Below, one piece after another: positions 4,608-24,242 of a DNA stretch of 63,125 nt; the stretch's first letter is position 1, and each line of letters starts with the position of its first letter. Source of the DNA: Pseudomonadota bacterium (GTDB taxonomy: Bacteria; UBA10199; 2-02-FULL-44-16; JAAZCA01); assembly GCA_043822785.1 (NCBI GenBank), contig JBDRBN010000026.1, forward strand, positions 1 to 63,125, given 5' to 3'. Under the pieces are notes generated by a model that worked only from the letters and a program-made list of their open reading frames with translations, searched no databases and was not told where the DNA came from. A program made the translations under genes and the position numbers.

Positions 4608-4629
4608 TTTTACCCCTGTCCATCATGCA

Positions 4630-4678
4630 CCCGTTACTTTTCTCGCGTTGCTGGCGTTTCTCGCTTTTCGGTAACGGG
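4630..4678. repeat. Intercistronic hairpin (CCCGTTAC/GTAACGGG stem) enclosing TTTCTCGC motifs
   Basis: cccgttac-ttttctcgcgttgctggcgtttctcgcttttcg-gtaacggg, lying between kamD and kamE. Confidence 0.6.
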
Positions 4679-4705
4679 CACGGATGCGGAAATTACATTA
4701 TCGAT

Positions 4706-6250: not shown

Positions 6251-6262
6251 CAGTTCTCCGTT

Positions 6263-6368
6263 GTCATTGCGAACCCTTCGACTCGCGTAGCTCGCTCAGG
6301 GCAAGCTCCGCGAAGCAATCTCCTGAATCACGGGGATCGCCACGCTCATTTCATTCGCTCGCGATGAC
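6263..6368. repeat. Hairpin repeat doublet (long-type unit plus type B unit), intercistronic between kamA and kamD
   Basis: gtcattgcgaacccttcgac...gctccgcgaagcaatctcc, a spacer, then gggatcgccacgc...cgctcgcgatgac. Confidence 0.85.
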
Positions 6369-6374
6369 AAATCC

Positions 6375-9176: not shown

Positions 9177-10382
9177 ATGATTAAAAAATATATTAAACGA
9201 AATTACTATCTCACTAAGATCAAACCATTCCTCGACAAGGACATTATCAAGGTCATTGTGGGGCAACGCAGGGTTGGAAAGAGCTATATGCTCTTTCAGA
9301 TTATGGATATGATCAAAGAGAAGCACAATGCAGCTGAGATCATTTATATCAACAAAGAGCTGCATGAATTTGAGCACATTCAAAATCATAAAGACCTCAT
9401 AAACCACATAGAAAAAACTGCTCCCAAGAAAAAAGCAAAAACCTACCTCTTTATAGATGAAATTCAGGACATACAGAATTTTGAAAAGGCGCTAAGAAGC
9501 CTCAAAGCGACCGGCAAATACGACATCTATTGCACCGGCAGCAACGCGACTCTTCTCTCAGGTGAACTGGCAACCTATCTGAGCGGCCGTTATGTGGAAA
9601 TAAAAGTTCACAGTCTTTCCTATCTTGAATTCCTCACCTTTCACAAACTCAAAGAAACTGAAGAGTCTTTTCTGAAATACATTAAATACGGCGGTTTGCC
9701 ATATCTTAAGCACCTAGAGCTCACAGACGAAGTTGTCTATGATTACTTGCGAAACGTTAATAACACGATTCTCTTCAAAGACATCATCGCCCGTTTTAAT
9801 ATCAGGAATGTTTCCTTTCTTGAACAGCTCGTGGATTACCTTGCAGACAATGTCGGCAGCATTGTGTCGGCAAAGAAAATCAGCGATTTTCTAAAGTCTC
9901 AGCGTATTAATATTTCTCCGAATGTTGTTCTGGATTACCTATCTCATCTGTGCTCCACTTTCTTTATTCACAAGGTGCAAAGGACCGACATTCGAGGCAA
10001 AAAGATCTTTGAGATAAATGACAAATATTATTTTGAGGACCTGGGGCTTCGCCACTCGATAATCCGTTATAAACAGACAGATATTAACAAGGTGCTTGAA
10101 AACATCATATATAACCACTTGGCCATTGCTGGTTATGATGTGATGGTCGGCCAGTTAGGAAGCAAAGAAATCGATTTTGTGTGCGAAAAGGGCGGCGAAC
10201 GCACATACATTCAGGTTGCCTACGTGATAACTGATGAAAACCGTGAGAGAGAGTTTGGAAACCTACTCGCCATACCAGATAATTATAGAAAAATCGTCAT
10301 TTCAACGGATTCACTTATTAGCGACACGAGTTTCAAAGGCGTGGAGCATGTAAATCTCAGGAGTTTTATAGGTTCTTTATAG
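9177..10382 (+). CDS. AAA+ ATPase with DUF4143-like C-terminal domain (COG1373-type)
   Basis: Walker A GQRRVGKS. Walker B LFIDEIQ. C-terminal EIDFV block, with the downstream E-x-K degenerated to IQVA. Confidence 0.8.
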   Translation: MIKKYIKRNYYLTKIKPFLDKDIIKVIVGQRRVGKSYMLFQIMDMIKEKHNAAEIIYINKELHEFEHIQNHKDLINHIEKTAPKKKAKTYLFIDEIQDIQNFEKALRSLKATGKYDIYCTGSNATLLSGELATYLSGRYVEIKVHSLSYLEFLTFHKLKETEESFLKYIKYGGLPYLKHLELTDEVVYDYLRNVNNTILFKDIIARFNIRNVSFLEQLVDYLADNVGSIVSAKKISDFLKSQRINISPNVVLDYLSHLCSTFFIHKVQRTDIRGKKIFEINDKYYFEDLGLRHSIIRYKQTDINKVLENIIYNHLAIAGYDVMVGQLGSKEIDFVCEKGGERTYIQVAYVITDENREREFGNLLAIPDNYRKIVISTDSLISDTSFKGVEHVNLRSFIGSL

Positions 10383-10390
10383 GGCGATGT

Positions 10391-10409
10391 CTCGCAAGAT
10401 GATTTTGTA
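10391..10409 (+). repeat. Right copy of the 19-bp direct repeat flanking ATPase cassette 1
   Basis: ctcgcaagatgattttgta, beginning 8 nt after the ATPase stop. Confidence 0.9.
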
Positions 10410-10489
10410 ATACCGAACTTGCAAAATCGAGTCGGTTGACAGAAATAAGCCTAAAATGAGACACTATCTTTGAATTGAGGTGCATACAC

Positions 10490-10729
10490 ATGGGGCTGGC
10501 AAAATATAAGACATTTGAGGATGCAAGAAAGAAGGATCTTGAAGATATCATCAAAAATAGCGTCAGTGCTTCGCGCTCCCAACAAAAAGAAAAAACATCT
10601 TCTGCAGCCAAACCTTTTGAGGCAAGTCATTATCCTAAAGGCATCTATCGCTTCAAATCATGGGAAGAAGCCAGAAATTCAGATCTTGAGCATATGATAC
10701 GTCATTCTATCAGGAGAAAGAGCGCATGA
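10490..10729 (+). CDS. Small protein with an internal duplication; putative partner of the downstream nucleotidyltransferase
   Basis: ATG follows GAGG. KYKTFEDARKKDLEDIIKNS and RFKSWEEARNSDLEHMIRHS are a duplicated segment. The stop overlaps the next start (ATGA). Confidence 0.5.
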   Translation: MGLAKYKTFEDARKKDLEDIIKNSVSASRSQQKEKTSSAAKPFEASHYPKGIYRFKSWEEARNSDLEHMIRHSIRRKSA

Positions 10730-11196
10730 TTCGTCTAGAGCAACTTCTCGATGTCTGCCAAAGGCTCAATGAAAGCGGAGTAAGTTATGTCCTGATCGGA
10801 GGATGGGCTATTTTCCTGCACGGCTATGAGCGCGCTACTCGCGATATCGACATCCTTGTAGATGATTCAGAAGATAACATTTCAGCCTTGAAAAAGGCTC
10901 TTAATGACCTGCTTCCAGAGGCCTGTGCAGAGCTGCAGGCTAATGATATACGCCAGAATGTGGTTGTCAGGATGGCGGGCGAGAATATCGTGCTCGATCT
11001 GATTAGAAACGTTGGCGATATGGATTTTGCCCGTATGAAAACTCATATAGAAAAACAAAAAATTAATGACGTGCTTATACCCTTTGCAGACCTGCCTGCT
11101 ATGCTCGATCTCAAGGGTGGCGTTCGCGATGTGGACCAGCGTGACTATCTGTTTTTGAAAGGAAAGATGGAGTATCTGCAAAGAGGCAAGAAGTGA
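10726..11196 (+). CDS. Nucleotidyltransferase-fold protein (MNT/AbiEii-like)
   Basis: LIGGWAIFLHGYERATRDIDILV matches the GG-x-A...HG...T-x-D-x-D NTase signature. Confidence 0.6.
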   Translation: MIRLEQLLDVCQRLNESGVSYVLIGGWAIFLHGYERATRDIDILVDDSEDNISALKKALNDLLPEACAELQANDIRQNVVVRMAGENIVLDLIRNVGDMDFARMKTHIEKQKINDVLIPFADLPAMLDLKGGVRDVDQRDYLFLKGKMEYLQRGKK

Positions 11197-11349
11197 AACC
11201 CGCTCGCGACTCATTCAGGCACTTTTGTATCTTGGTGGAACGGTATTGAGTTGAAGTTCCAAAATTCAGATTTTTATATTATTTCAGATATAAAAATCAT
11301 GGGGTTGTGTGTCGAGAAACGTCCCTTTGTTTTTCTTTCTCATTTTGGT

Positions 11350-13164
11350 TCATAAAAATGGCATGAATCTTCTGTTCTGCGATGAGGCGTGGATTGCGAG
11401 CGCAAGCCAGTCATCATCTTCCGTGTAAATAACCTTGAGCCTAAAGAGCTGGCGCAGCACCCTGCGGAGCTCTTTTTCAGGAATGTCCCTAAATCTTTCG
11501 CGCATCTCCTTGAAGCTTCGGATAGAGTCGCAGAAGAGATATAGCTCACGTGACCACCCGTCTAGACGATGACAACTATAAGAAGATCTAAAATCATTAA
11601 TTTCTATAGTCTTATCGTGATCCAAATAAAAAAGTAGAGGCATGCCTTCGGAAAGAGATTCTTCATAAACGGAGCTCCATCTTTTAATGTGCTTCTCAAG
11701 CGGGTGTTCCTTTTCTACCCCATTTCTTCCTTTAAATTTCTTATGCCAGAGTGAAAGATTAGAATATTTAGATGGAACGAGGTTCCCAAGTACACCTGCC
11801 TCGTTGATAGAGTGAATATGATATTTTCGTTGTTGTTGATGAACTAAAGATTGTTCTTGCAATTCAAAGAGCGTACATGACGGTGGATGGTAGGAAAGGC
11901 AATATTCAATGTTATTGATGCTTCTTTCAATATCCTTCCGAGATTCCAATGGATAACCTAATATTATATTCGAGGCATCGTAGCGAATTCCAAGTTCTTC
12001 ACAATGTTTCATTGTCTGATAATTATCAATTACCCTCAAACCTTTATTCATTTTTTTCAGAAGCGAAGAAGCAAGCGCTTCTATCCCAATAGTAACTCCA
12101 TCCACTCCTGATTTCTTCATAATTGAAAGAGTATCTTTTGGAATTCCAGCGCGTATTTCACAAAACAATTTGTAGTCGAGATGATGCTTGGAAAGAAGTG
12201 TAAATATTTTTCGTGCGTACCGGAAATCAACAAACCGATCGACAATAAATACTCTGTAGGTGCTATATTTCCGGCACACCCTTTCAATTGATTGTGAAAC
12301 TACCTTCACAGGCTTTACTCTGTATTTTTTAAAATAATTCCGATCACTACAGAAAGCACAATTATGAATACATCCTCTGCTCATTTCTACAGGGATGAAT
12401 GGGGATATTTCGGTTCCAGCTAACAAAGGACTATTTTCAATAAATGCAAAATATGAATCATAGTCAGGATCACCCATTTGTTTCATACTTCTAAGCTCAG
12501 TGCATTTATTGACTTGTATCCTACCATCCCTACGGTAAATTAGTCCTGGAATCTGACTCTCACTATTTTCATTCCAATCATTAGAAATGTTTAATAGTTT
12601 AAGATAAGGCTGTTCTCCTTCACCATCAATACACCAATCAACAAAATCAAAATGACGAAGGAGTGATTTTCCAAGATTTCCGGAACTACATTTACCACCT
12701 AGAACGACCTTTGTATTTCGATTATCCCTTTTAATCCATTTGGATAGAACCAATGCTGTAAACAACTGTTGGTAATCAACAGTAATACCAATCAGAGAAT
12801 ATTTTTTCTTTTTCAGCTGGCAATAATATTTCCAAAGTGCTGTCTTAAATTCACCACGAACAACCCTTCCTACGGAGGGTGATAGTAATCGATCAACATA
12901 CTTAATAAATTTAATATTATCTCTGAAAAGAAGGGAACCACTGATAGCGTCACCAAGATATTTATCCTGAAAGACAATCTGATTATATAATTCTAATCCA
13001 AGAATCGAAGCAATTTCCAAATGGAGATGATGCGTTTCTATCGGATGCCCATGCTGATTTGCAAAAGCTGACAAACAACCAATTGCAAGCGATGGTCTCT
13101 GGTAGTCCGCCCACGGCGGTGATATTAAGAGTGCTCGTTTTTTTTCATGTAATAAATTGACCAT
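11350..13164 (-). CDS. B12-binding-domain radical SAM enzyme, paralog 1 (RiPP-maturase-like)
   Basis: SRGCIHNCAFC CxxxCxxC. N-terminal Rossmann/B12-like region (VVLGGKCSSG). C-terminal module ...LRRVLRQLFRLKVIYTEDDDWLALAIHASSQNRRFMPFL is shared with paralogs 2 and 3. Confidence 0.85.
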   Translation of the reverse strand: MVNLLHEKKRALLISPPWADYQRPSLAIGCLSAFANQHGHPIETHHLHLEIASILGLELYNQIVFQDKYLGDAISGSLLFRDNIKFIKYVDRLLSPSVGRVVRGEFKTALWKYYCQLKKKKYSLIGITVDYQQLFTALVLSKWIKRDNRNTKVVLGGKCSSGNLGKSLLRHFDFVDWCIDGEGEQPYLKLLNISNDWNENSESQIPGLIYRRDGRIQVNKCTELRSMKQMGDPDYDSYFAFIENSPLLAGTEISPFIPVEMSRGCIHNCAFCSDRNYFKKYRVKPVKVVSQSIERVCRKYSTYRVFIVDRFVDFRYARKIFTLLSKHHLDYKLFCEIRAGIPKDTLSIMKKSGVDGVTIGIEALASSLLKKMNKGLRVIDNYQTMKHCEELGIRYDASNIILGYPLESRKDIERSINNIEYCLSYHPPSCTLFELQEQSLVHQQQRKYHIHSINEAGVLGNLVPSKYSNLSLWHKKFKGRNGVEKEHPLEKHIKRWSSVYEESLSEGMPLLFYLDHDKTIEINDFRSSYSCHRLDGWSRELYLFCDSIRSFKEMRERFRDIPEKELRRVLRQLFRLKVIYTEDDDWLALAIHASSQNRRFMPFL

Positions 13165-13281
13165 GTTCCATATTAATCAATTTGTAGATCATATATGACA
13201 TATTCTAATTTGATTTGATTGACACTTTAGGAAGGAATACCGTAGGTGCCCCGCGCTTTCTCTCGAAATTGAGTACGATTG

Positions 13282-13382
13282 ATCTTACCCCAAGAACTAG
13301 CACACGACAAAGTTGAGTCCCTTTGGAGTTATCCCACCGAAGGGACTCAACATCAAACCATCTTAGTTTCCTGGGGTAAGAT
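13282..13382 (-). promoter_or_regulatory. Nested stem-loop between the precursor-like ORF P1 and radical SAM paralog 1
   Basis: Outer 11-bp arms atcttacccca (13282-13292) and tggggtaagat (13372-13382). Inner 12-bp arms gttgagtccctt (13312-13323) and aagggactcaac (13340-13351). Confidence 0.6.
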
Positions 13383-13386
13383 TACA

Positions 13387-13542
13387 TTATTTTTTTCTTG
13401 CGAGACCGCTACCGCCAATTTCCTTTATCTTCTGAATGCCACCAATTTCCTTTATCTTCCGAACATTTAATGCGGATTTTGGAGTTCTAGCAGTGTAGCT
13501 TTTGGTTCTTGCCGAACTACTGGTCTTCTTTATCTGTGCCAT
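13387..13542 (-). CDS. Small ultra-basic peptide P1 (51 aa), candidate precursor peptide
   Basis: Hand translation: MAQIKKTSSSARTKSYTARTPKSALNVRKIKEIGGIQKIKEIGGSGLARKK. GAGGAG SD lies 7 nt upstream. Same strand as, and upstream of, radical SAM 1. Not in the ORF track. Confidence 0.6.
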   Translation of the reverse strand: MAQIKKTSSSARTKSYTARTPKSALNVRKIKEIGGIQKIKEIGGSGLARKK

Positions 13543-13606
13543 AGATAATCTCCTCTCTTATTGTCTTTAATTTACTTCTTTATTAAGAATACATTGAAAG
13601 AATAGT

Positions 13607-14701
13607 GTGTTGCAAGTTATAAACAAAGATACTATGAATACGCTTAATATAATCCTGCAGCGTTGGCAAGAGTATCTACGCAAAAAAAATAAGAAAGATT
13701 ACATAACTGCTTATATTCATATTCCATTCTGTTCCAGAAGATGCCGCTATTGTGATTTTCCCTCACGAGTAATAAAAAGTTCGAATGACATCGATGGATA
13801 TCTAGACTTTCTTCAGAAAGAAATGTCTTTGTTAGCGCCCCTTTTTAAGGGGCACTCTATTTCCGGTCTATATATCGGGGGTGGCTCGCCTTCAATATTG
13901 GAACTTCATCAGATGAAACGATTGTTTAAAATGATCGGAAGTTGTTTTGAGTTAGATCTTGATGATCAAAATATGTTCACGATCGAAATTAATCCGATTC
14001 ACTTAAATGAAGATAAAATTGACTTAATATCCTCGTCGATCGTTAACCGCGTAAGTTTGGGAATTCAATCACTTGATTCTAATGTTTTAGCAATAGAAGG
14101 AAGAGAATGCTTACCAATGGATAGAATGTTTTATTTACTCAGCCATTTGATGACTAAGATGAGGCATAAAGGTTGTAGGATCAACACTGATCTCATATTC
14201 GGATTGAATCAACAATCATTGAAGATCTTTCGTAATGACTTTTCGCGACTTGTTCAATGGGATATTCCTCGCATTACAATTTATCCTTGCAGACGAAATT
14301 ATGATAATGGTTGGAACCAGGCATTTAAGAGAAGAGTTGTAGCAACTGTGAAATCTATTCATGAAAGCTTTCCCAACTATGATTTAATTCAATCAATGGG
14401 TCATTTTAAGGGAATTAACCATTTTGAACCCGAGTACAATTTCATTAATAAAAACTATAATCACTGCTATAAAAAGAGATACCAGGATTTTCCCTTTATT
14501 CATAATAGCAATATCGGATTTGGTTATTATGCAGATTCCTTTATTCATCCAGGACGATGCTACTACCGGAGAACTAGAAGGGAATACATTATATTGCATG
14601 ATAAAGAATCGGGAATTGTTAATCCATGGCTAGACAAGTATTTTATTAATGCCGAGATGTGTAGAAAAGCAAAAATCAGCGCTGATAATATCCCCTATTG
14701 A
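13607..14701 (+). CDS. HemN-like (class C) radical SAM enzyme
   Basis: YIHIPFCSRRCRYCDF and LYIGGGSPS motifs of the HemN/coproporphyrinogen-oxidase-like family. Divergent from the P1/radical SAM 1 pair. Confidence 0.8.
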   Translation: MLQVINKDTMNTLNIILQRWQEYLRKKNKKDYITAYIHIPFCSRRCRYCDFPSRVIKSSNDIDGYLDFLQKEMSLLAPLFKGHSISGLYIGGGSPSILELHQMKRLFKMIGSCFELDLDDQNMFTIEINPIHLNEDKIDLISSSIVNRVSLGIQSLDSNVLAIEGRECLPMDRMFYLLSHLMTKMRHKGCRINTDLIFGLNQQSLKIFRNDFSRLVQWDIPRITIYPCRRNYDNGWNQAFKRRVVATVKSIHESFPNYDLIQSMGHFKGINHFEPEYNFINKNYNHCYKKRYQDFPFIHNSNIGFGYYADSFIHPGRCYYRRTRREYIILHDKESGIVNPWLDKYFINAEMCRKAKISADNIPY

Positions 14702-14989
14702 TTCTATTCACTATAAATCTGCAAATATTGCTACTCATATGGTTACGACCTGTAGTGCCCCCGGTAAGTCGAGACAATAATTTGGCTGAATGTAGCAGGG
14801 GTTTCGAGTCATCAGACAGCTTGTCTCCGTATGTGTGATCTCGACAAGTTGAGGGATACCATATCCTTCATTGCATCGAGATCGTCGTTCATATCGAATC
14901 CTCGTTTGCCGTTTTTCTTCTCACTCATGCAGCGGCCTTCATGGTGTTCAAGAACGCCTCCTAAACGATAGTGTCCGACACCTTTTTTT

Positions 14990-15160
14990 AAGAGTTTTGA
15001 TGAAATCAAAAAGCGCCTTCCTGATGTGAGCGATAAGGAGCTTAAGAGAACGCTCAATAAGCTTTTCAAGCTCAAGGTCATGTTTAAGGAAGGAAACGAC
15101 TGGCTCTCACTCGCAATCCACGCCTCACCAGAAAACCGCCGGCATATGCCGTTTCTATAA
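14990..15160 (+). pseudogene. Orphan 3' fragment (last 56 codons) of a radical SAM paralog
   Basis: Translates to KSFDEIKKRLPDVSDKELKRTLNKLFKLKVMFKEGNDWLSLAIHASPENRRHMPFL*. Nearly identical at DNA level to 17287-17457. No upstream gene body. Confidence 0.85.
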
Positions 15161-15295
15161 TAACATGCCCATGCCCCTGCCCCTGCCCGTTATCGAGAAT
15201 GTAGGACAAGCGAAATCCTGATCCCTTTTGCATTGAAATTTACGCTATTCCACGATATACAGCATGTCACTCACTTTCGATGGAAGGAGCCATTT

Positions 15296-15442
15296 ATGCC
15301 AAGGGGTCAAAAAAAATTTTTAAAACCTATACTCAAAATATCTGAAAAACCAAGAGGCCAAGGTAACAAACCACCAAGTAAACAAGGAAAAAAACCAGCT
15401 CCTGGTGGTGGAAAGAAAAGACGAGTCTCGCATCTTGTCTAA
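15296..15442 (+). CDS. Small ultra-basic peptide P2a (48 aa), candidate precursor peptide
   Basis: MPRGQKKFLKPILKISEKPRGQGNKPPSKQGKKPAPGGGKKRRVSHLV. GGAAGGAG SD upstream. The track shows a longer ORF from 15233. Confidence 0.6.
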   Translation: MPRGQKKFLKPILKISEKPRGQGNKPPSKQGKKPAPGGGKKRRVSHLV

Positions 15443-15505
15443 AAAAGCTCGCAGGACACTCAATCAACTCTTCAAGCGTCATTCACGCAATGAAAGGGGT
15501 CATTT

Positions 15506-15649
15506 ATGGTAAGAAAAAGAAATACATATTCAGCATCTACAGTCAAAAGCGTATCAAAAAAAACGGGTCGCACACGAGTTAAAGTGAAAACAAAAGGCTT
15601 ACGCACCCCTGTTGGTGTTAAGAAAAAACGAGTCGCGTATCCTGTCTAA
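15506..15649 (+). CDS. Small ultra-basic peptide P2b (47 aa), candidate precursor peptide
   Basis: Hand translation: MVRKRNTYSASTVKSVSKKTGRTRVKVKTKGLRTPVGVKKKRVAYPV. GAAAGGGG SD upstream. The stop is 11 nt before the radical SAM 2 start. Not in the ORF track. Confidence 0.6.
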   Translation: MVRKRNTYSASTVKSVSKKTGRTRVKVKTKGLRTPVGVKKKRVAYPV

Positions 15650-15660
15650 AAAGAACTCGA

Positions 15661-17388
15661 ATGAGCGCTCCCAAGTTTCTTCTTGTATCTCTACCCTGGG
15701 CCACATATCAGGGGCCCAGCCTTCCTATAGGCACGCTCGCAGCATACGCCCAAAACAAAGGATTCGACGTTGAGGCAAAACACCTTCATCTAAAAGCTGC
15801 GGCTCTTTTTGGACTAGAAATTTACGATCACTATTCCTATCACACTTTTGTTGGAGATGCCATTTCTGCCGCAATACTCTTTCCGGAAAAAGAAAAAGAG
15901 CTCGTTGAATATTGCGAATGCTGCGTCAAAGGGGCAAAGAGCCATCTCATCGATCTCAAGCATGCACTAAAAAGAATCTATGAAGAAGTGGATTGGGCTA
16001 AATACGATGTGGTAGGCTTCACCACTAGCTACCGTCAGATCTTTACCTCGCTCATCATAGCCAAATGGATAAAGCGCGACTATCCAGAAGTTAGAATTAT
16101 CCTGGGAGGACGCTTAGTGAGCGGAGCACAGGGTCATTCGATAATAAAACTCTTTCCACAGATCGATTATTGCGTGGATGGAGAAGGCGAGATAGCACTT
16201 GTATCTCTTTTAGATGAGATGAGGCATGCAAATGCCGATTTTGAAGCCAAGGTGCCTGGACTCATATACCGCAAGGAAGAAGAAATTTATGCAAATCCTA
16301 GGCAGCATCTCGAAAGCCTCGAGGACATGCCTGATCCGGATTACAGACATTACTATAAAACAATTGATAAACATCCATCTCTAAAGAATAGCGCATTGCC
16401 ACTCTATCTCCCGATAGAGGCAAGCCGTGGATGCAACTATAGGTGTGCCTTTTGTTCCCACAATATATTCTATGGCAACAACCGCAATCGACCGCCAAAG
16501 GAAGTTGCATCCTCAATCCAGCGTTTGACCGACCTCTATCGAATATCCTCTATTATTTTTATGGATCTGACCGTCCAGCCCGAGCATTCTGAAAAGCTGT
16601 TTGCGCACATTGCTGCGCAAAAACGCGATTACAAAATCTTCTGCGAAATGCGCGCCAATATATCCAAGGAAGTGCTCTTGATGATGAAGCAAGCTGGCTT
16701 AAGTGCGGTGCAGGTCGGGATAGAGGCGCTAGACACTCGCCTTCTTAAAAAAATAAATAAAGGAACTAGGCTTATAGATAATCTTCAAATCATGAAATTC
16801 TGTGAGGAGCTGGGAATTGGTTTAGATTATAATCTCATCTTGGGCTTTCCTACTGAAACCCAGACAGATATCGAGCGGTCCATTCAAGCCATCGAGTATG
16901 CCTCATCCTTTCCGCCTCCGTTAACGCTTATAAACTTCACACTCATTGATGGCTCTCCTGTTTTTTGCTCGCCACAGAAGTATGGCATCTATAAAAATGA
17001 CGATTGCTCAGAACTCTCATCCAGATTACCACGACATATCACTGCTGAAATGAAGCTGCTTTATAAAACTTATAAATCCAAGTATAAACCACGAGACTAT
17101 TCTAGACTGAACAGAAGGGTAGAGCGCTGGAGAAAACTATATAAGGAGGCAAGGAAAGAAGGCTGCCCTCTTTTTTACTATGTGGACTTCAATAGCTTTC
17201 TAAATATCGAAGATTACAGAACGGGTGTGGATTCCATCACCCTTGATAGCTGGGCACGCGAACTTTACCTCTTCTGTGACTCTATAAAGAGTTTTGACGA
17301 AATCAAAAGACGATTTCCTGATGTGAGCGATAAGGAGCTTAAGAGAACGCTCAATAAGCTTTTCAAGCTCAAGGTCATGTTTAAGTAA
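15661..17388 (+). CDS. B12-binding-domain radical SAM enzyme, paralog 2; C-terminal tail cut off by a TAA
   Basis: SRGCNYRCAFC motif. Ends ...KLKVMFK*. The 22 in-frame codons after the stop (17389-17457) encode GNDWLSLAIHASPENRRHMPFL. Confidence 0.85.
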   Translation: MSAPKFLLVSLPWATYQGPSLPIGTLAAYAQNKGFDVEAKHLHLKAAALFGLEIYDHYSYHTFVGDAISAAILFPEKEKELVEYCECCVKGAKSHLIDLKHALKRIYEEVDWAKYDVVGFTTSYRQIFTSLIIAKWIKRDYPEVRIILGGRLVSGAQGHSIIKLFPQIDYCVDGEGEIALVSLLDEMRHANADFEAKVPGLIYRKEEEIYANPRQHLESLEDMPDPDYRHYYKTIDKHPSLKNSALPLYLPIEASRGCNYRCAFCSHNIFYGNNRNRPPKEVASSIQRLTDLYRISSIIFMDLTVQPEHSEKLFAHIAAQKRDYKIFCEMRANISKEVLLMMKQAGLSAVQVGIEALDTRLLKKINKGTRLIDNLQIMKFCEELGIGLDYNLILGFPTETQTDIERSIQAIEYASSFPPPLTLINFTLIDGSPVFCSPQKYGIYKNDDCSELSSRLPRHITAEMKLLYKTYKSKYKPRDYSRLNRRVERWRKLYKEARKEGCPLFYYVDFNSFLNIEDYRTGVDSITLDSWARELYLFCDSIKSFDEIKRRFPDVSDKELKRTLNKLFKLKVMFK

Positions 17389-17582
17389 GGAAACGACTGG
17401 CTCTCACTCGCAATCCACGCCTCACCAGAAAACCGCCGGCATATGCCGTTTCTATAATAACATGCCCATGCCCCTGCCCCGTTACCGAATATATCTATAT
17501 TTTACAAGAAGTTAATTGATTCAAAATTCCTGACAACACTTTTAGACTTGCTAACGTTTATAACGTTAAGTATACTAACGTT

Positions 17583-18917
17583 ATGGACGTTAAGACAATA
17601 AACGAGCTGCTTTCTAGCGGAGAAATAGACAGAGAAGACCTCTGGCCACGTATCGTTGAAATGGAATCAAAAGCAGCCCAATTCAGGTTTGAATTCGGTT
17701 TGGATGAGCTGCCAAAAGAACCTGGCATTATAACTATCAGAGGACCACGCCAATATGGAAAAAGCACCTGGCTAGAAATGAATCTGAGAATATCTATTCA
17801 AGACTTTGGAAAGGGATCGGCATTTTATATCAATGGTGACGAGCTGGCATCCGCTGATGAGCTTGCAGAACAAATGAAAGTTTTGTGCAGAGCTTATTCT
17901 CGAGATGCAAAAATCAAAAGGTTGTTCATCGATGAGATAACCGCGGTAAAGAATTGGGAAAAAGCCATCAAAAAGGTGGTCGATCAGGGGCTTTTTAAAG
18001 ATATCCTCATAATTACGACAGGGTCAAAGGCTTCTGATCTGCGCCATGGCACAGAGCGTTTACCTGGGAGAAAAGGTCGTCTCAAGAAAAGCGAATATAT
18101 TTTTCTGCCAATCTCTTATCGTGAATTCAATTATCAAACCAGAAATGAGCTCGGCAATAAAGCTTGGATAGCCTACCTTCTGACTGGCGGTTCCCCAGTG
18201 GCATGCAACGATATTTATCAATTCGAAAAACTACCTGAATATTTTATTCAAATGACCCGCGATTGGGTATTGGGAGAGACGGTCTCGTCCGGCAGAAGCC
18301 GTATGCTGTTGACGCAGGTATTGCACACAATAATGAAATACGGAGGCCAGCCAGTTGGTTTTGCAAAACTCGCACGAGAATCAGGCCTTGCAAACAACAC
18401 AGTTGCTAGCGGTTATATAGAACAATTATCGGACCTGCTTTCGTTGCTTCCATCTTGGCCGTGGGATAGTCAGAGGGACATCTTTCTATTAAGAAAACCC
18501 TGCAAATTTCACTTCATCAATCTTGCAGCTGCCTTGTCTTTTCACCCTTCAATGCCGCGCCATATTCACGAATATGAAGCTTTGGATTCGCATGTGCAAT
18601 CATACTTGCTTGAATGGCTTGTTGCCCAAGAATTATGGCGACGCGCTGTTCTTGCACAAGTTGAAAATCCTGAAGTCATTGGTTTTTGGGCATCGAAGGA
18701 GCATGAAATTGATTTTGTAACGCATGACAGACAAATGATTGAAGTGAAACGTGGACGCGCGGGTCCGCTGGATTTTGGCTGGTTTAACAAAACTTTTCCA
18801 AATGAGAAGCTCACAGTCATTTGTGACACTCCCTTTGCAAGCGATCAGTTAATTGGCATCACAATTGACAAATTTCTTATGAACACACCTACTACACTCT
18901 ATTTTAATGAAGAGTAA
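17583..18917 (+). CDS. AAA+ ATPase with DUF4143/PD-(D/E)xK-like C-terminal domain (COG1373-type)
   Basis: Walker A GPRQYGKST. Walker B LFIDEIT. C-terminal EIDFV...IEVK nuclease-like motif. Confidence 0.8.
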   Translation: MDVKTINELLSSGEIDREDLWPRIVEMESKAAQFRFEFGLDELPKEPGIITIRGPRQYGKSTWLEMNLRISIQDFGKGSAFYINGDELASADELAEQMKVLCRAYSRDAKIKRLFIDEITAVKNWEKAIKKVVDQGLFKDILIITTGSKASDLRHGTERLPGRKGRLKKSEYIFLPISYREFNYQTRNELGNKAWIAYLLTGGSPVACNDIYQFEKLPEYFIQMTRDWVLGETVSSGRSRMLLTQVLHTIMKYGGQPVGFAKLARESGLANNTVASGYIEQLSDLLSLLPSWPWDSQRDIFLLRKPCKFHFINLAAALSFHPSMPRHIHEYEALDSHVQSYLLEWLVAQELWRRAVLAQVENPEVIGFWASKEHEIDFVTHDRQMIEVKRGRAGPLDFGWFNKTFPNEKLTVICDTPFASDQLIGITIDKFLMNTPTTLYFNEE

Positions 18918-18926
18918 TGAACATAA

Positions 18927-18978
18927 TCCCATCCATCCGCGCCTCGCCCGAAAACCGCCGGCATATGCCGTTTCTTTA
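18927..18978 (+). repeat. Orphan copy (D) of the radical SAM 3' tail
   Basis: ccatccgcgcctcgcccgaaaaccgccggcatatgccgtttctttaa. The 26-nt core gaaaaccgccggcatatgccgtttct is identical to 17428-17453. Confidence 0.85.
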
Positions 18979-18995
18979 AAAAAAGTTCAACTAAG

Positions 18996-20530
18996 AGAGG
19001 CTGTTGATAAAGTAGGGGGTTTAGGTCATTAAAAATCGGGCGATTTTTTGAAAAAAGGCTGAAATTTCGGTTTGCCCCCTGTATCGCCTCCTTCTGTTTT
19101 CCCTTTCCCCGGCTCTCGGGGGCATGGCTCTTAGGGAAGGGGTACTGTTACGCAACCGCCGCCATCGGAACAAGTCTCACCGGCGGAGCATTGATTAGGA
19201 TATTTATCAACCGCTGAATATTTGCAGCCAGCGCCGTGAAGAAACACTGAAACCTGAATTTTGCCAGACCACGATACCGGCACCGCCTCATCCCAAACCC
19301 GTTTTTCAATTGTCCGTTCTTTCGCTCGATCGCTCCGCGCTTTTTCATGAGCTCCTTGTATGTTGCAGTCTCGTTAAACGCTGCCTTACGCTTCCTATAC
19401 ATAAAACTCGGTGATGCCAGCACAGTAATGCCGCCCCCGCCATGTCACATAACTTGCCGACGTCTCTTCACCTCCAGGACATCGCATGCTCGGCGCTCCA
19501 CTCTGGCCCTGGATCAATTCAGACATATCATTCGCAAAAACGCTGCTCTCGCTCCTCTGTTTCAGAGGCGTCACCACCTTCGTGCCTTTTCCTTCCAGAT
19601 ACATACCCAAGCCTTCATCCGCATCTCCCACCACTGATGCGGGCTTGATCCCAGCACACGAAAGCTCCGCCATCATCTCACCCACTCCCCACGTGTCATG
19701 CCGATTCCCAAGCATCCCTTCGATCGCCGTGATGAATCCATCCCCGCTCTTCTCCAGATACTCCAACAGCCGACGTGCTGCCTGTACCAGCTCCACCAAA
19801 TGATTCTTCTCCTCCCCGCGCTTTGCAATCTCAAACACAACTCCTAACTCCAAATTCTTTGCCAACTGATTCCCCACTCCCCCTGGAAGCCTCTCCGCGC
19901 TTCGCAACACCCCCTTAATCCCCATCCGCAATAACTCGATCGTGTTCGGTATCGCGATATCCGCGATCACATGCGTGGTGTCGATCACTCCAGTCTCCCC
20001 AGCTTTTATTAGCCCAGCCTGGATAAGCGCCTCTCGAAATCTATCAAAACATACCGCCGTCTGATCATTCTCCACCAGCATCCCCCGAAACTTGCACAAC
20101 ACCGTGTGATCGAATCCTCCGTCATCCATCGGCAATCCCAATGCGTACTTCGTAGCCAAATTAAACCGGATCTGCCGCTCCATCTCCCGATCCGACAACC
20201 GATACCGCTGCTGCAATATCAGAGAACATGCAATCAACGATGGCGGGATCGCTCCTCTCCCTCGGTCCGGACTCTAAGCCCATGCAAAATCCTCGTCGCT
20301 GATCAGAGGCCGAACCACTCGCCTGAAATGCCACTCGAAACTCTCCTCGTCGATCAAATGCTCGATCCATTCCGTACCCCAAAAACTCCCTTGCCCACCA
20401 CCGCGCTTTAGCATTTTTTACCCCCGTCGATTTTATGACGCATCCTCAAATCACCTGCTGATATGCATAAATACTACATCTCCACCTATTTTCATACCTA
20501 ATATGCATCGAGAGAAAATCAACAGCCTCT
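18996..20530 (-). mobile_element. Decayed IS5/IS1182-like insertion sequence
   Basis: 13-bp terminal inverted repeats agaggctgttgat (18996-19008) and atcaacagcctct (20518-20530). They enclose a disrupted DDE transposase. Confidence 0.75.
19148..20411 (-). pseudogene. DDE transposase (DUF772 N-terminal type) with an in-frame TAG and a frameshift
   Basis: N-terminus MLKRGGGQGSFWGTEWIEHLIDEESFEWHFRRVVRPLISDEDFAWA*SPDRGRGAIPPSL... continues into ORF 19395-20237. The C-terminal domain (ERKNGQLKNGFGMRRCRYRGL) is in another frame (19148-19423). Confidence 0.75.
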
Positions 20531-20727
20531 AAGACGTGTCAAATTTTTAACTTCCAAAAGGCGCTATTTTTCATTATGGTAACAGGTATGATTTTAAATG
20601 TTATTATGTTATCAAGATGTTATGGTATAGTGTTTTTTTGCACAGAACTTGCATAAATTCAGTGCTCGAACTGATTGGGCACTTATAACTGAAACAAGAG
20701 GAATAATAGAAAAATGAGGAGGTTGTT

Positions 20728-20826
20728 ATGAAAAAGACAGGAAGTATCACCGCAAAGAAAGCTGGTTTTAAGAGTAAGCTCGGCCGTCGCGCTGTTCTTC
20801 CTGCTAAAAGTACGCGGTCAAGATAG
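20728..20826 (+). CDS. Small ultra-basic peptide P3 (32 aa), candidate precursor peptide
   Basis: Hand translation: MKKTGSITAKKAGFKSKLGRRAVLPAKSTRSR. GAGGAGG SD lies 6 nt upstream. The stop is 29 nt before the radical SAM 3 start. Not in the ORF track. Confidence 0.6.
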   Translation: MKKTGSITAKKAGFKSKLGRRAVLPAKSTRSR

Positions 20827-20855
20827 ATCTGAAATGGGTCGATTAGAAGATTAAT

Positions 20856-22673
20856 ATGAATGCTAACAGGGCTGCCATCATATCACTCCCCTGGGCTGAA
20901 TATCGTGCGCCATCAGTGGCAATCGGCGCACTTGCATCCTTTGCAAGAAGATATGGGCATAAAGTCGATGCGCTTCAGCTCCACCTTCCTTTTGCTGCTC
21001 TCTTTGGTATAGATCGATACGATAAAATTCTAGATGATGTAGCAGACGAGTCATCAAAAGGCCATGTTGGAGAGGCGCTGTGCGCAGCTCTTTTGTATAA
21101 AGACGAAAAACATAAGCTTTTGGAATATATTGGAAGATCTATAGATTATCCCCAGAAAAATCTTCGTTCACTCGAGCGCTCGCTTACTCAAATATATAAA
21201 ACCCATGATTGGAGCCACTACAGGCTGATAGGGTTTTCAACAACTTTGGGCCAGCTCTTTGCTTCACTTCTGTTTGCCTCATGGATAAAGAAGGACCATC
21301 CCAACATCCGCATAGTCCTTGGAGGAGATCCAGTAAGGGGTGCGCTAGGCGCATCGATATTGAAAACAAATCCACACATCGATTGGTGCGTTGACGGGGA
21401 AGGGGAGCTGGCCTTCACAGCCCTGCTTAATGGACTAAAGCAGAAAACTGGAACCTTTGAGACAGAGGTTCCGGGTCTTATATATCGCGATGGTGATAGG
21501 ATTTGTCATAATGAGAAAAAACAGATCCCTGATCTTTCAAATCTTCCAGATCCAGATTTTGATGATTATTATAATACTCTTAACGAGCTTGATAGCCTAG
21601 CTAACAAGGAACTCTATGCGTTTTTGCCGATAGAGACAAGCAGAGGGTGCCTGTTCAGGTGTGCCTTTTGCGGAGATCGAAGCGTATGGCAGGGTTATCG
21701 CATGCGCAAACCAGAGGCTGTAGCTAAGCTTGTTAAGAGATTAACCAAAAAAAATCGAGTCGACAGGATTATCTTCACTGCACTTATGATGTCGCCTGAC
21801 TATCTTAAAACGTTATCAAGATTGCTATCCAAACATCGCAGAGATTATAAAATCGTCACTCAATTGAGAGCCGACACCCCTAAAGAGGTTCTCATCGAGT
21901 TAAAGAAAGCAGGTGCATGCGAAGCGCAGATTGGTATAGAAGCGCTTGATTCAAAGCTTCTTAAAAAGATGAATAAAGGCACGACAACTATTCAGAATCT
22001 TGCTGCCCTCAAATATTGTGCAGAAATCGGCTTAGATGCAGGGCAGAGCAATTTAATGATAAATTTTCCCACAGAAACAGGGGCAGATTTAGATAGGACA
22101 ATATCGACAATCGATTTCGCAATACAATATAGCACGCCTAACGTAGCTTGGTTTATTCTTAAAATTGGATCACTTGTTGCAGAACAGCCACAAAAATATG
22201 GGGTTACATCTATTAATCATAATACGTACTTTTATGAATATTTACCAACAAGGATAGCGCATGAAATCAAGTTGCAATATCTCTCGTTCAAATCCAGGAA
22301 CATGACAAAGCAACATCACGAATTTTTGAATAAAATGAAGAAGTGGAAGAAGAGCTATGAAGAAGCTAAAAAGGCAGGCCGCTATTTCCTTTCATATACC
22401 GACTGTAAAGATTTTTTACGAATTGAAGACTTCAGAGAAGGTTCCAGTTCAGTAACACTCGAAGGCTGGATAAGAGATTTATATCTCTATTGCGATAAGA
22501 TAAGAAAGCTGGATGAGATTCAAAGGCAATTTTCAGAAATCGATTCAAAGGAACTAAAGCGGACTCTTCAAGAACTCTATAAGCTCAAGGTCATGTTCAA
22601 GGAGGGCAATGACTGGCTCTCGCTTGCCATCCATGCATCACCTGAAAACCGCCGGCATATGCCGTTTCTTTAA
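20856..22673 (+). CDS. B12-binding-domain radical SAM enzyme, paralog 3 (full-length tail)
   Basis: SRGCLFRCAFC motif. IVLGGDPVRG B12-like region. C-terminus ...ELKRTLQELYKLKVMFKEGNDWLSLAIHASPENRRHMPFL. Confidence 0.85.
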   Translation: MNANRAAIISLPWAEYRAPSVAIGALASFARRYGHKVDALQLHLPFAALFGIDRYDKILDDVADESSKGHVGEALCAALLYKDEKHKLLEYIGRSIDYPQKNLRSLERSLTQIYKTHDWSHYRLIGFSTTLGQLFASLLFASWIKKDHPNIRIVLGGDPVRGALGASILKTNPHIDWCVDGEGELAFTALLNGLKQKTGTFETEVPGLIYRDGDRICHNEKKQIPDLSNLPDPDFDDYYNTLNELDSLANKELYAFLPIETSRGCLFRCAFCGDRSVWQGYRMRKPEAVAKLVKRLTKKNRVDRIIFTALMMSPDYLKTLSRLLSKHRRDYKIVTQLRADTPKEVLIELKKAGACEAQIGIEALDSKLLKKMNKGTTTIQNLAALKYCAEIGLDAGQSNLMINFPTETGADLDRTISTIDFAIQYSTPNVAWFILKIGSLVAEQPQKYGVTSINHNTYFYEYLPTRIAHEIKLQYLSFKSRNMTKQHHEFLNKMKKWKKSYEEAKKAGRYFLSYTDCKDFLRIEDFREGSSSVTLEGWIRDLYLYCDKIRKLDEIQRQFSEIDSKELKRTLQELYKLKVMFKEGNDWLSLAIHASPENRRHMPFL

Positions 22674-22704
22674 TAACATGCCCGTTTCTGTGCCCGATGC
22701 AGTA

Positions 22705-23835
22705 CTACGTAATGAACTCAAGATAATTTTGCCTGGTTATTAATTCGTATTTTGAATCCTTATAAGCCTCGATCCAATCTTTAGGAGCCTTAGCTTTCCT
22801 TGGAGCCCATTTTACTTCATATGCATGGAGCAAGCCTTCGCGCTCTTCGATAAGATCGATTTCTTTTTTATCGTATGTTCTCCAAAAATAGTTGTTGGTG
22901 CTTATCTGCAGATATTCCTGTTTTTTGATTCGCTCTACAATGACATAGTTCTCCCAGAGCATGCCAATATCATTTCTGAGATTTAACGAATTAAAATTGT
23001 TGATGATGGCATTGCGAATACCTACATCGTAGAAAAAATACCGTGAGGTCTTGGATATCTCTTTACGGAGATTTCTGCTAAAACCCGATAGGTGAAAGAC
23101 GACAAAGGTCTTTTCAAGAAGATCCAAATATTTATCAATCGTATTCTTGCTAATGCCTAGCTGTGTACCAAGCTCATCACAAGAAACCTCTTTGCCAATC
23201 TGAAAAGCAAGTAACTGTAAGAGCCTTACTATTTTGTCGGAGTGTCTAATCCCATCAAGCTCTAGTATATCTTTATATAGATATGAGGCGACTATTTCCT
23301 TTAGATATCGTTCTCGCTCATGGTCATCATTAGTTATTACCACTTCAGGATATGAACCATAAATCAACCTGCTTTCCAGATGTGCATCGATTTCGAATTG
23401 CTCTTCCATTTGCATTATCTCCAGCTGAGCCAGGGGATACATTTTGAGCGTTTTCTTTCTTCCTGTAAGGGGTTCACCTACATTTCTAGCAAGATCAAAT
23501 GATGAAGAACCTGTTGCTATGATCTCAATGCCTTCGACGTGATCGACCAGCAGCTTAAGGTTCAAACCGATGTTTTGAATTTTTTGAGCCTCATCCACTA
23601 CGAGCAGCCTATTCTTTCCAACAAACCCTTTGAGTTTTGCGATAGATTGGCTGCTTAAATACTCTTGAACATTTATGTCTTCTCCACTCACCATCAAAAA
23701 TGACCTTTTTTCCTTTTCAAGAAACTTCTTCAAAAGGGTGGTCTTACCGCACCTGCGAGGGCCATAAATAGTAACAACCATGTTGGGCGAAAGTGCCTTT
23801 TTTAGGTTTTTAAGCTGATATTGCGGAATATACAT
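22705..23835 (-). CDS. AAA+ ATPase with DUF4143/PD-(D/E)xK-like C-terminal domain (COG1373-type)
   Basis: Walker A GPRRCGKTT. Walker B LVVDEAQ. C-terminal EIDLI...YEVK motif. Confidence 0.8.
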   Translation of the reverse strand: MYIPQYQLKNLKKALSPNMVVTIYGPRRCGKTTLLKKFLEKEKRSFLMVSGEDINVQEYLSSQSIAKLKGFVGKNRLLVVDEAQKIQNIGLNLKLLVDHVEGIEIIATGSSSFDLARNVGEPLTGRKKTLKMYPLAQLEIMQMEEQFEIDAHLESRLIYGSYPEVVITNDDHERERYLKEIVASYLYKDILELDGIRHSDKIVRLLQLLAFQIGKEVSCDELGTQLGISKNTIDKYLDLLEKTFVVFHLSGFSRNLRKEISKTSRYFFYDVGIRNAIINNFNSLNLRNDIGMLWENYVIVERIKKQEYLQISTNNYFWRTYDKKEIDLIEEREGLLHAYEVKWAPRKAKAPKDWIEAYKDSKYELITRQNYLEFIT

Positions 23836-24045
23836 AGACTCTATTTATTATAATTCAGTCAATTAACTGACTATATTTTATCAAATACAGTCAATTAATC
23901 AATACATATCTGCTATCCTTGCCTCGCCGCAATCAATCTCTACATGTTTTCTTTGAAATATATCATATAATATCAATATGTTATATGATGTATATATGAT
24001 CGGATAACATAAATTGAGAAAATGATTATTTTAACTGACACCTGG

Positions 24046-24084
24046 GTCGTCATTTATCATGATAAATGACGACTGAAGTTTTTT
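24046..24084 (+). other. Perfect 13-bp-arm palindrome followed by a T6 run
   Basis: gtcgtcatttatc-at-gataaatgacgac then tgaagtttttt. There is no plus-strand gene upstream for it to terminate. It sits just inside the orphan tail E. Confidence 0.5.
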
Positions 24085-24114
24085 GGAAAAACTGTGGGGC
24101 CGCAAGTTTTGTTG

Positions 24115-24178
24115 ATGACTGGCTCTCGCTTGCCATCCACGCATCGCCCTGAACCAGCCAGCATATGCCGTTTCTATG
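24115..24178 (+). repeat. Orphan copy (E) of the radical SAM 3' tail
   Basis: gactggctctcgcttgccatccacgcatcgccctgaaccagccagcatatgccgtttctatgaa. The first 23 nt are identical to the tail of paralog 3, which ends at 22673. Confidence 0.85.
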
Positions 24179-24242
24179 AAAATGAAAAAGGCCCGCAAGA
24201 AATGATATTCCCCGTGGGCCATGTTTCATATTGTAGCCGAAA

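Follow-up and report, generated by a model that had tools for sequence, protein, structure and literature searches.

What ties three large cobalamin-dependent enzymes to the very short and very basic peptides encoded next to them? This question is raised by a contig of 63,125 nucleotides (nt) from a Pseudomonadota bacterium (GenBank assembly GCA_043822785.1, contig JBDRBN010000026.1, forward strand), here called the window and analyzed over its whole length, where three genes for B12-binding radical S-adenosylmethionine (SAM) enzymes lie between positions 11350 and 22673 together with small open reading frames (ORFs) for peptides rich in Lys and Arg. A first-pass annotation had proposed that these genes form a system of the RiPP type (for peptides made by the ribosome and modified after translation), made of three such modules. 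Our analyses establish that the pairing of the peptide ORFs with the enzymes is not due to chance, make it likely that the peptides are the enzymes' substrates, and give good support, from sequence comparison, to an as yet undescribed family of putatively radical-SAM-modified polycationic peptides.

Three B12 radical SAM enzymes and the polybasic ORFs before them

The enzymes are encoded at 11350–13164 on the minus strand (enzyme 1, 604 amino acids (aa), with a long ...HASSQNRRFMPFL tail), at 15661–17388 on the plus strand (enzyme 2, 575 aa, prematurely stopped), and at 20856–22673 on the plus strand (enzyme 3, 605 aa, full length, and the one whose structure was modeled). As the first-pass annotation had recognized, they are paralogs of about 600 aa with a common N-terminal LPWA..Y..PS..IG layout and an SRGC-x3-CAFC (CxxxCxxC) cluster. 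They are 38–43% identical to one another, and the cluster is intact in all three. The resemblance it had seen to the PoyC/rSAM_ocin_1 type was borne out by a profile search, in which enzymes 1, 2, and 3 score 295.6, 333.3, and 308.9 bits against TIGR03975, the NCBIfam family "RiPP maturation radical SAM C-methyltransferase" (rSAM_ocin_1, PoyB/PoyC type; curated cutoff 281.85 bits), and match positions 2–606, 2–595, and 2–606 of its 606. They score far under the cutoff of each of the other class B (cobalamin-type) families of NCBIfam. The Pfam Radical_SAM domain is present in all three (58.8–75.3 bits, threshold 29.5), and the Pfam B12-binding domain lies above its gathering threshold of 32.1 in enzyme 2 (34.1), below it in enzyme 3 (25.5), and is unmatched in enzyme 1.

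The AlphaFold model of enzyme 3, built on 23 sequences of its clade (predicted local distance difference test score (pLDDT) 90.5), has the class B fold. Its best Foldseek matches are OxsB, TokK, TsrM, CysS, and MgmA, with AprD4 also among the best, and OxsB, TokK, TsrM, and CysS are matched over 510–590 columns (E = 1e-15 to 1e-18). A profile search of PDB sequences agrees with Foldseek, TokK and CysS being the nearest solved relatives by sequence and MgmA (9ccb) being matched by sequence and by structure alike. Toward the C-terminus, a block (KELKRTL..L.KLKV....DWL.LAIHAS) is conserved in enzymes 1–3. The module of about 90 aa around it had been described as helical, which is only partly so: the block is real and conserved, but in the model of enzyme 3 a first helix leads into three strands, three more helices, and a beta-hairpin, a winged helix such as peptide-recognition elements also have. 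This C-terminal domain, whose residues 484–605 fold alike when modeled separately (pLDDT 85), retrieves winged-helix proteins and the RiPP radical SAM enzyme TigE with weak Foldseek scores (best E = 0.02), and a role as peptide-recognition element is plausible on the basis of the model.

Upstream of each enzyme, on the same strand, lie the peptide ORFs, all of them unannotated in the source assembly. Peptide 1 (13387–13542, minus strand; 51 aa, MAQIKKTSSSARTKSYTARTPKSALNVRKIKEIGGIQKIKEIGGSGLARKK; charge +12) follows the Shine–Dalgarno (SD) string GAGAGGAG and is encoded 222 nt before enzyme 1. Peptide 2a (15296–15442, plus strand; 48 aa, MPRGQKKFLKPILKISEKPRGQGNKPPSKQGKKPAPGGGKKRRVSHLV; charge +14; SD string GGAAGGAG) lies upstream of peptide 2b (15506–15649, plus strand; 47 aa, MVRKRNTYSASTVKSVSKKTGRTRVKVKTKGLRTPVGVKKKRVAYPV; charge +16), whose stop codon is 11 nt before enzyme 2, and peptide 3 (20728–20826, plus strand; 32 aa, MKKTGSITAKKAGFKSKLGRRAVLPAKSTRSR; charge +11; SD string GAGGAGG) ends 29 nt before enzyme 3. 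All four start with ATG, the SD string being GAGAGGAG, GGAAGGAG, GAAAGGGG, or GAGGAGG, and all four fit the earlier description as Lys/Arg-rich and Cys-free (27–34% K+R, no Cys). That one or two SD-led ORFs directly precede each enzyme holds for modules 2 and 3; in module 1, the peptide ORF sits at a distance, and a second candidate ORF with a GTG start (13205–13303) lacks the basic character and probably does not represent a gene.

Such ORFs are rare in this DNA. A screen of all six frames of the window gave 82 ORFs of 28–80 aa led by a strict SD pattern. Just three of them combine a net charge of +10 or more with a K+R content of 25% or above, and these three are peptide ORFs situated just upstream of the enzymes; the fourth, peptide 2b, escapes the strict pattern because its SD string is slightly weaker. 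Neither peptide 2b nor a homolog of it is found in a collection of 5.8 billion proteins, and it has therefore never been called as a gene. Peptide 1 carries an internal 9-aa repeat (RKIKEIGG/QKIKEIGG; 27-nt tandem repeat at 13412–13463), and peptides 2a and 2b have in common a C-terminal KK(K/R)RV..x.V motif and 3' DNA. Peptide 2a is probably orphaned; a stretch resembling an enzyme 3' end follows it at 15441–15527, the match being faint (E = 0.036) and tentative.

The same arrangement recurs in other genomes and in unrelated metagenomes. Against the 5.8 billion proteins, enzyme 3 has about 21 relatives at 38–46% identity (445–619 bits), after which the values drop to 33% and 309 bits, and a profile search of 1.84 billion representatives at 50% identity brings out about 22 clusters clear of the rest of the family. 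We gathered 112 loci (numbered L001 onward) and, in 106 of them, split clade from outgroup by BLAST of enzyme 3 against all long ORFs: genes of the clade have at least 36% identity and 300 bits, other TIGR03975-like genes at most 29% and 233 bits. By this sequence comparison, the enzymes form a rare and distinct clade, at most 29–33% identical to other TIGR03975 members and known solely from uncultured organisms, and none of its members has a known non-peptide substrate. The hairpin motif of the C-terminal module, LMxxEGxxYLSLA, is kept throughout TIGR03975 (LMxREGNxYLSLAV in the outgroup), so that this module is a feature of the family and not of the clade.

According to the first-pass annotation, a lack of adjacent basic ORFs next to homologous enzymes would have spoken against its proposal. 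Instead, an SD-led ORF of 32–69 aa with a net charge of at least +8 stands directly before 18 of the 30 distinct clade genes, and another five hold the second or third place in a tandem row of enzymes behind a basic ORF. The same filter applied to 68 outgroup genes picked nine ORFs, almost all Arg-rich and without SD, many of them from lineages of metagenome-assembled genomes (MAGs), namely Acidobacteriota and their relatives, whose GC content is typically high. Several clade peptides were annotated independently by the gene callers of other projects, and bare peptide–enzyme pairs occur among housekeeping genes, by ATP-citrate lyase genes in L107 and between miaA and lolA/ftsK in L110.

With regard to the peptides as a group, ten of them, including the four of the window, match no NCBIfam model, those of the NHLP and Nif11 leaders included, and nothing meaningful in Pfam at E-values up to 1 (a single chance match at E = 0.08), in agreement with the first-pass remark that they have no leader of this type; at 32–51 aa, the window peptides are shorter than NHLP/Nif11-type leaders alone. 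Near the outgroup enzymes, a crude regular-expression search for GG-type or NHLP-like leaders gave convincing precursors in three loci (L009, L030, and L037), and we therefore make no claim that the outgroup uniformly uses such leaders. What is strongly conserved in the clade peptides is their composition: K (18.8%), R (13.9%), and T (9.9%) are enriched, Val and Ile are at normal levels, and a 3- to 14-fold depletion affects Leu, Phe, Asp, Glu, His, Trp, and Cys. [KR][VIL][KRTS] triplets are in modest excess (36 against 26 ± 4.5 in shuffled sequences), and several peptides have internal repeats, such as ITRFPGR, present twice in the L046 peptide. In the L007/L049 pair, nonsynonymous differences per site (pN) amount to 0.37 and synonymous ones (pS) to 0.75 in the peptides, against a pN of 0.22 in the adjoining enzymes, which is consistent with a translated, fast-evolving peptide ORF, even though the synonymous sites are saturated.

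The type of peptide also goes with the type of enzyme. In a subclade of enzymes with a short ...YLSLAIRANGPK tail, the paired peptides have an N-terminal [KR]x[ILV][ILVM][KET][VI]R motif in six cases out of six; for the remaining enzymes, mostly with a tail of the long ...HASPENRRHMPFL type and including those of the window, the motif is found in none of 11 paired peptides. Such a co-variation of tail and motif is the signature that would be expected of enzyme–substrate co-evolution.

From proposed chemistry to competing explanations

From the genes, their family membership, the modeled fold, the recurrent pairing, and the co-variation, we infer not only a substrate relation but also a chemistry, a set of target residues, and a biological role. 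In the full explanation that we consider best, and which is somewhat more probable than not, the peptides would be docked by the C-terminal winged helix and C-methylated at several side chains. The catalytic cycle of class B radical SAM methylases is known from PoyC, TokK, and CysS (reviewed in PMC11285071). In the present case, once the winged-helix domain had docked the peptide, the [4Fe-4S] cluster would reductively cleave SAM to give a 5'-deoxyadenosyl radical, which would take a hydrogen from an unactivated sp3 side-chain carbon of the bound peptide; methyl-cob(III)alamin would hand over its methyl group, a second SAM would remethylate the resulting cob(I)alamin, and the cycle would repeat at several positions. 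The likeliest targets would be beta-branched Val, Ile, and Thr between basic residues, given that Val, Ile, and Thr are retained, that Leu is depleted, and that [KR][VIL][KRTS] triplets are in excess; Lys or Arg, the latter as with Mmp10, would be the alternative. What results would be a polycationic peptide that bears several C-methyl groups and resists proteases.

This proposal has counterparts in the literature: B12 radical SAM C-methylation of unactivated side-chain carbons in peptides, beta-branched in polytheonamides, has been described for PoyB/PoyC (PMC11285071), and a B12 radical SAM enzyme C-methylates Val, Ile, and Thr in the small peptides that give clavusporins (PMC10849626). With respect to later steps, the first-pass annotation had seen no protease, exporter, or immunity gene, and indeed we found none among the ORFs of the window; the relatives, on the other hand, carry an M29 aminopeptidase gene inside the arrays of L001, L002, and L046 (in L108, such a gene lies about 8 kb from the clade enzyme) and a GNAT gene in those of L002 and L046. 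These are candidates for trimming and acylation, respectively, and would probably trim or acylate the product in these relatives.

Several observations weigh against this reading. Seven of the 30 clade genes have no detectable basic ORF; the peptides have no recognizable leader and can hardly be aligned, clear homology being confined to the L007/L049 pair; and the co-variation of tail and motif is confounded with phylogeny. On the side of the enzymes, the margin above the TIGR03975 cutoff is just 14–51 bits, the Foldseek E-values behind the recognition-element assignment are weak (0.02 or worse), and enzyme 2 is truncated. Minimal modules elsewhere also come without protease, exporter, or immunity gene, and because neither these modules nor the window offer such genes, and the peptides no leader, a secreted natural product is not established. 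Besides, B12 radical SAM enzymes of RiPP pathways may cross-link rather than methylate, as in biphenomycin-like peptides (PMC12257519). Odd as well is the charge of the enzymes themselves: the clade enzymes are basic, as noted in the window, L001, L002, L004, and L046, with a median net charge of +14 (26 distinct proteins) against -8 in the rest of the family, and the neighboring genes in clade loci encode neutral or acidic proteins. A basic enzyme is awkward for binding a peptide of charge +11 to +25, a fact for which we have no explanation. An IEDxR motif, a CD motif, and a near-invariant Glu (E583) are conserved in the clade enzymes, and a locally acidic cleft or a polyanionic third partner could possibly reconcile a basic enzyme with a basic peptide.

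If the peptides are indeed substrates, the enzymes might still catalyze something other than C-methylation, be it cross-linking, epimerization, or some other rearrangement, by radical chemistry, in the side chains of Lys, Arg, Thr, Val, or Ile. The best structural matches do include enzymes that are not methylases, namely OxsB, which contracts a ring, and the dehydratase AprD4; cross-linking is within the reach of B12 radical SAM enzymes of RiPP pathways, as mentioned above; and the clade, whose scores just exceed the family cutoff, has no more than 33% identity with any member outside it. Nevertheless, the sole curated cutoff that these enzymes pass is that of a C-methyltransferase family, TokK and CysS, which come nearest to them in sequence among solved structures, C-methylate iteratively, and the aromatic and Cys residues of known radical cross-links are wanting in the peptides, so that a different chemistry seems unlikely to us. 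A little less likely again is that the ORFs are translated without being substrates, either as Lys/Arg-sensing regulatory upstream ORFs or attenuator leaders, or as nucleic-acid-binding partners of enzymes that act on another substrate, maybe a polyanion such as RNA. Enzyme and peptide are both strongly basic, as if made to bind polyanions, leader, protease, and exporter are missing, and the array adjoins lysine-fermentation genes in the lineage of the window. Moreover, module 1, and module 1 alone, has a long spacer between peptide and enzyme genes in which an RNA hairpin is predicted (13282–13382, minus strand; fold energy -68.2 kcal/mol against -48.8 ± 4.1 for shuffled sequences, z = -4.8), possibly an attenuator or a transcript-stabilizing element. 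Yet the gap between peptide stop and enzyme start measures 11–30 nt in modules 2 and 3 and at most of the other loci, which leaves no space for terminator/antiterminator structures, and peptides of 32–69 aa with variable sequences are unlike attenuator leaders. An Rfam search at gathering thresholds, covering the window and five clade loci, brought up neither a riboswitch nor any other known RNA upstream of the peptides. The model whose cutoff the enzymes exceed is one of peptide maturases, the peptide type co-varies with the enzyme tail, and no class B radical SAM enzyme is known to act on RNA.

Finally, the small ORFs could be nothing but chance frames in A-rich spacers, with enzymes whose substrate is encoded elsewhere. 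They are, after all, unannotated in the source assembly and without family match, and Lys codons are common in AT-rich spacers such as those of this region (36–44% GC). This explanation is, however, hard to square with the charge screen, where the three passing ORFs out of 82 all stand at enzymes, with the recurrence of the arrangement, SD sites and unbroken frames included, at 18 of 30 clade genes that come from many samples and from loci unlike in composition, or with a pN below pS in the sole alignable pair, and we regard it as very improbable.

A decayed module array among island cargo

The first-pass picture of triplicated modules stands insofar as three enzyme–peptide modules are present; it understated the disorder of the locus, where one enzyme is truncated, one peptide is orphan-like, and three enzyme genes have left behind relics of their 3' ends. 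Relic A (14990–15183, plus strand) is an orphan 3' end of the last 44 codons and some 25 nt beyond, which matches the 3' end of the enzyme 2 gene at 97% identity and those of two L001 enzyme genes at 85–87%. Relic B (18925–18982, plus strand) consists of the last 15 or so codons (...IRASPENRRHMPFL and a stop) and begins about 15 nt after the stop codon of an AAA_14 gene, and relic C (24066–24182, plus strand) is the degraded 3' end (...DDWLSLAIHASP, a stop, then TSQHMPFL) of a further lost enzyme gene. Syntenic relatives are found in L001, where the flanking RHS-toxin gene is present too, and in L046, which has the kamA and dehydrogenase genes; L001 carries a tandem array of five enzymes interleaved with peptides, and L046 two peptide–enzyme modules on the available contig stretch. 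Since the relic 3' ends survive here and these relatives carry module arrays, the window is, judging from its sequence, a decayed and rearranged module array in which several enzyme bodies have been lost or replaced.

Enzyme 2 itself illustrates this decay. Its stop codon results from a single GAA-to-TAA change at 17386–17388, the homologous frame running on to 17457, and the DNA past the stop is in frame and 97% identical to the relic copy. The change costs the last 22 aa, that is, the conserved beta-hairpin wing and the tail, for which reason enzyme 2 may have turned into a pseudogene recently, may be a truncated variant, or may owe its stop to an error in the assembly. The tail is predicted to be disordered (pLDDT <50), yet it is identical in paralogs that are just about 45% identical overall. 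At the DNA level, the last 26 nt of the enzyme genes (GAAAACCGCCGGCATATGCCGTTTCT) contain a perfect palindrome (CGGCATATGCCG) and show almost no synonymous variation in seven paralogs and orthologs, when the preceding codons vary; the gene relics retain exactly this element. Its copies lie at 17432–17457, 22648–22673, 15135–15160, and 18954–18979 in the window, and at 7773–7792 and 9792–9811 in L001. This constancy may reflect a motif of the protein, an element of the RNA or a terminator, or a hot spot of recombination.

Three AAA_14/DUF4143 ATPase genes are dispersed through the region, at 9177–10382 (plus strand), 17583–18917 (plus), and 22705–23835 (minus), and match PADLOC PDC-S01 (E = 3e-144, 4e-21, and 6e-152, respectively), a single-gene, stand-alone defense candidate. 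Two of them sit between an enzyme 3' end and its relic (17393–17460 and 18925–18982; 22609–22676 and 24066–24182) and have the look of cassettes put in place of parts of the array. In L004, L048, and L049, such genes are interleaved with modules in the same manner. We considered these ATPases as components of the system and rejected the idea: they recur by the modules in two lineages, yet neither the closest syntenic relatives nor the minimal modules have them, and on this basis, together with the PDC-S01 match, we treat them as island cargo. The region of the array has 36–44% GC, its flanks about 48–50%, and the annotated ORFs of at least 110 aa between 9 and 24.5 kb are the three ATPases, a nucleotidyltransferase, a transposase, a HemN-like gene, and the three enzymes; we read the ATPase genes, the nucleotidyltransferase, and the insertion sequence, which is present as a fragment, as cargo of an island, not as parts of the system. 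The enzymes were likewise set aside as members of a known defense family, since they match just PDC-M51A, weakly and through a generic radical SAM similarity (E = 6e-10). The transposase is a split gene of the DUF772 type inside the array (19148–20237, minus strand), and a Y1 transposase of the IS200 type lies farther away (36458–37177, minus). Immediately upstream of the 22705–23835 ATPase gene, two 30-nt direct repeats (GACT.TATTT...CAGTCAATTAA) set 32 nt apart (23837–23898) look like an operator.

The HemN-like gene of the list, at 13607–14701 on the plus strand (364 aa, or 355 aa from the ATG at 13634), had been counted into the proposed system as a class C radical SAM gene. The ORF does exist and is divergent from module 1; neither its membership in the system nor a class C methylase nature has any evidence behind it. 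Its radical SAM core, and that alone, aligns with the HemN, HutW, and HemW models (E = 1e-32 to 1e-38; hemN, 2.5e-36), below every NCBIfam cutoff, and the core is what it has in common with the class C enzymes HemN, HemW, and ChuW, the HemN_C domain (PF06969), which most relatives carry, being unmatched in the ORF by Pfam. No homolog was found in any of the other clade loci, and the only two relatives above 31% identity lie in unrelated contexts, one beside an anSME-like enzyme and the other in an HxsD cluster, which led us to discard the gene as a component.

On the left of the island, a lysine-fermentation set (3747–8668, minus strand) comprises lysine 2,3-aminomutase, the alpha and beta parts of D-lysine 5,6-aminomutase, and a probable 3,5-diaminohexanoate dehydrogenase; such genes are next to the island in L046 too. 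Other lineages place the modules elsewhere, so the proximity of Lys-rich peptides to Lys-degradation genes is probably a coincidence. The D-lysine 5,6-aminomutase (3747–6250) is at least one other B12 enzyme of the organism. On the right, a gene for an RHS-repeat protein of 2190 aa and polymorphic-toxin type (27482–34054, minus strand) has its ortholog beside the L001 array. Positions 9424–13159 of the window are 100% identical to L006 (JAHIYT010000019.1, 3.9 kb), a contig of the MAG "Patescibacteria group bacterium Modern_marine.mb.142"; as the 63-kb contig holds a lysine-fermentation operon and an RHS toxin, the Patescibacteria label is doubtful and may be a binning artefact.

Some side observations were made on the other clade loci. 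In the L004/L048 lineage, relics of a fadB-like 3' end (...ERMKHTLMTGKPLRN and a stop) stand before each duplicated module (L048: 2349–2429, 7617–7682, 9774–9821, and 11124–11201), which implies that the modules were duplicated with about 200 nt of upstream flank. A conserved block of about 70 nt upstream of the peptides in L048, L049, L053, and L007, considered as a regulatory element, turned out to be a relic of the neighboring fadB-like 3' end that had traveled with the duplicating modules. The same L004/L048 lineage has (GAAGCCA)n heptamer arrays after several enzyme stop codons. Small proteins with a poly-Lys/Arg N-terminus and a SWIB/MDM2-like C-terminus are encoded near two clade loci (L002, 14984–15250, minus strand; L109, 16907–17152, minus strand). 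Finally, the enzyme profile matches giant proteins of 1500–2300 aa (P0224, P0229, P0241, P0300, and P0312) in four to six separate stretches, and these are apparent fusions of several B12 radical SAM units.

Likeness to known systems and meaning for the family

Among characterized enzymes, the proteusin C-methyltransferases PoyB and PoyC are those to which the window enzymes compare most directly, through the full-length match above the TIGR03975 cutoff, the cobalamin domain, radical SAM core, and winged-helix module that they have in common, the presence of several paralogs per locus, and the C-methylation that we presume here. They differ in that the window enzymes stand in a separate clade, are basic and not acidic, and belong to a type of module of which minimal two-gene versions exist. 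Unlike proteusin precursors, the peptides are short (32–69 aa), polybasic, and devoid of an NHLP/Nif11 leader, and no epimerase, N-methyltransferase, dehydratase, or leader protease is found among the annotated ORFs between 9 and 24.5 kb.

The clavusporin (Mpc) system of Streptomyces offers another parallel, in that a short and easily missed precursor ORF lies beside a B12 radical SAM gene and that its precursors also had to be found through position and composition rather than homology. There, MpcB installs multiple C-methylations on Val, Ile, Thr, and Pro (PMC10849626). The Mpc precursors, however, have hydrophobic cores and acidic followers, and the system belongs to an actinobacterial lineage and includes a DUF5825 partner as well as an MFS transporter and an S9 peptidase; these domains turned up neither among the ORFs of the window nor in the clade loci examined. 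As for a modification that takes place inside the cell and without export, a precedent exists in Mmp10 (acting on Arg) and MgmA (acting on Gln), class B radical SAM enzymes that C-methylate side chains of methyl-coenzyme M reductase, an intracellular ribosomal polypeptide; these differ from the present enzymes by having a single large protein as substrate, no dedicated small precursor gene, and no such winged-helix module, and enzymes 1–3 score 59–66 bits against the cutoff of 360 of the corresponding NCBIfam family. In the literature, we found no description of polybasic precursors paired with TIGR03975-type enzymes. The enzyme family is known, and the clade, the precursor type, and the two-gene architecture have no description in Pfam, in NCBIfam (June 2026 release), or in the literature that we found.

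On a more tentative note, and with odds that we would put below even, the system could represent a new RiPP-like class, in which peptides with a charge of +11 to +25 and little or no leader would be multiply C-methylated by a basic, PoyC-like branch of enzymes, within a self-contained two-gene module that has no dedicated protease or exporter. Because the module has neither, its products may act inside the cell or on nucleic acids, and they may be nucleoid-, ribosome-, or phage-directed peptides rather than classical secreted antibiotics. The position of the modules in a variable island, interleaved with PDC-S01 candidates, leaves open a role in conflicts with phages or competitors.

If the peptides were indeed substrates of these enzymes, short polybasic precursors without NHLP/Nif11 leader would be added to a well-studied maturase family, whose systems would then be reducible to two genes. 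Enzymes that methylate unactivated carbons in highly cationic sequences would also be of interest for making protease-resistant cell-penetrating or antimicrobial peptides. Genome mining based on leaders would miss this clade, since its precursors in this assembly escape gene callers and family databases and since the clade is rare and known from uncultured organisms. Lastly, the positive charge of the enzymes hints that there may be more to this branch of the family than the standard picture of peptide maturation, possibly a polyanionic partner.

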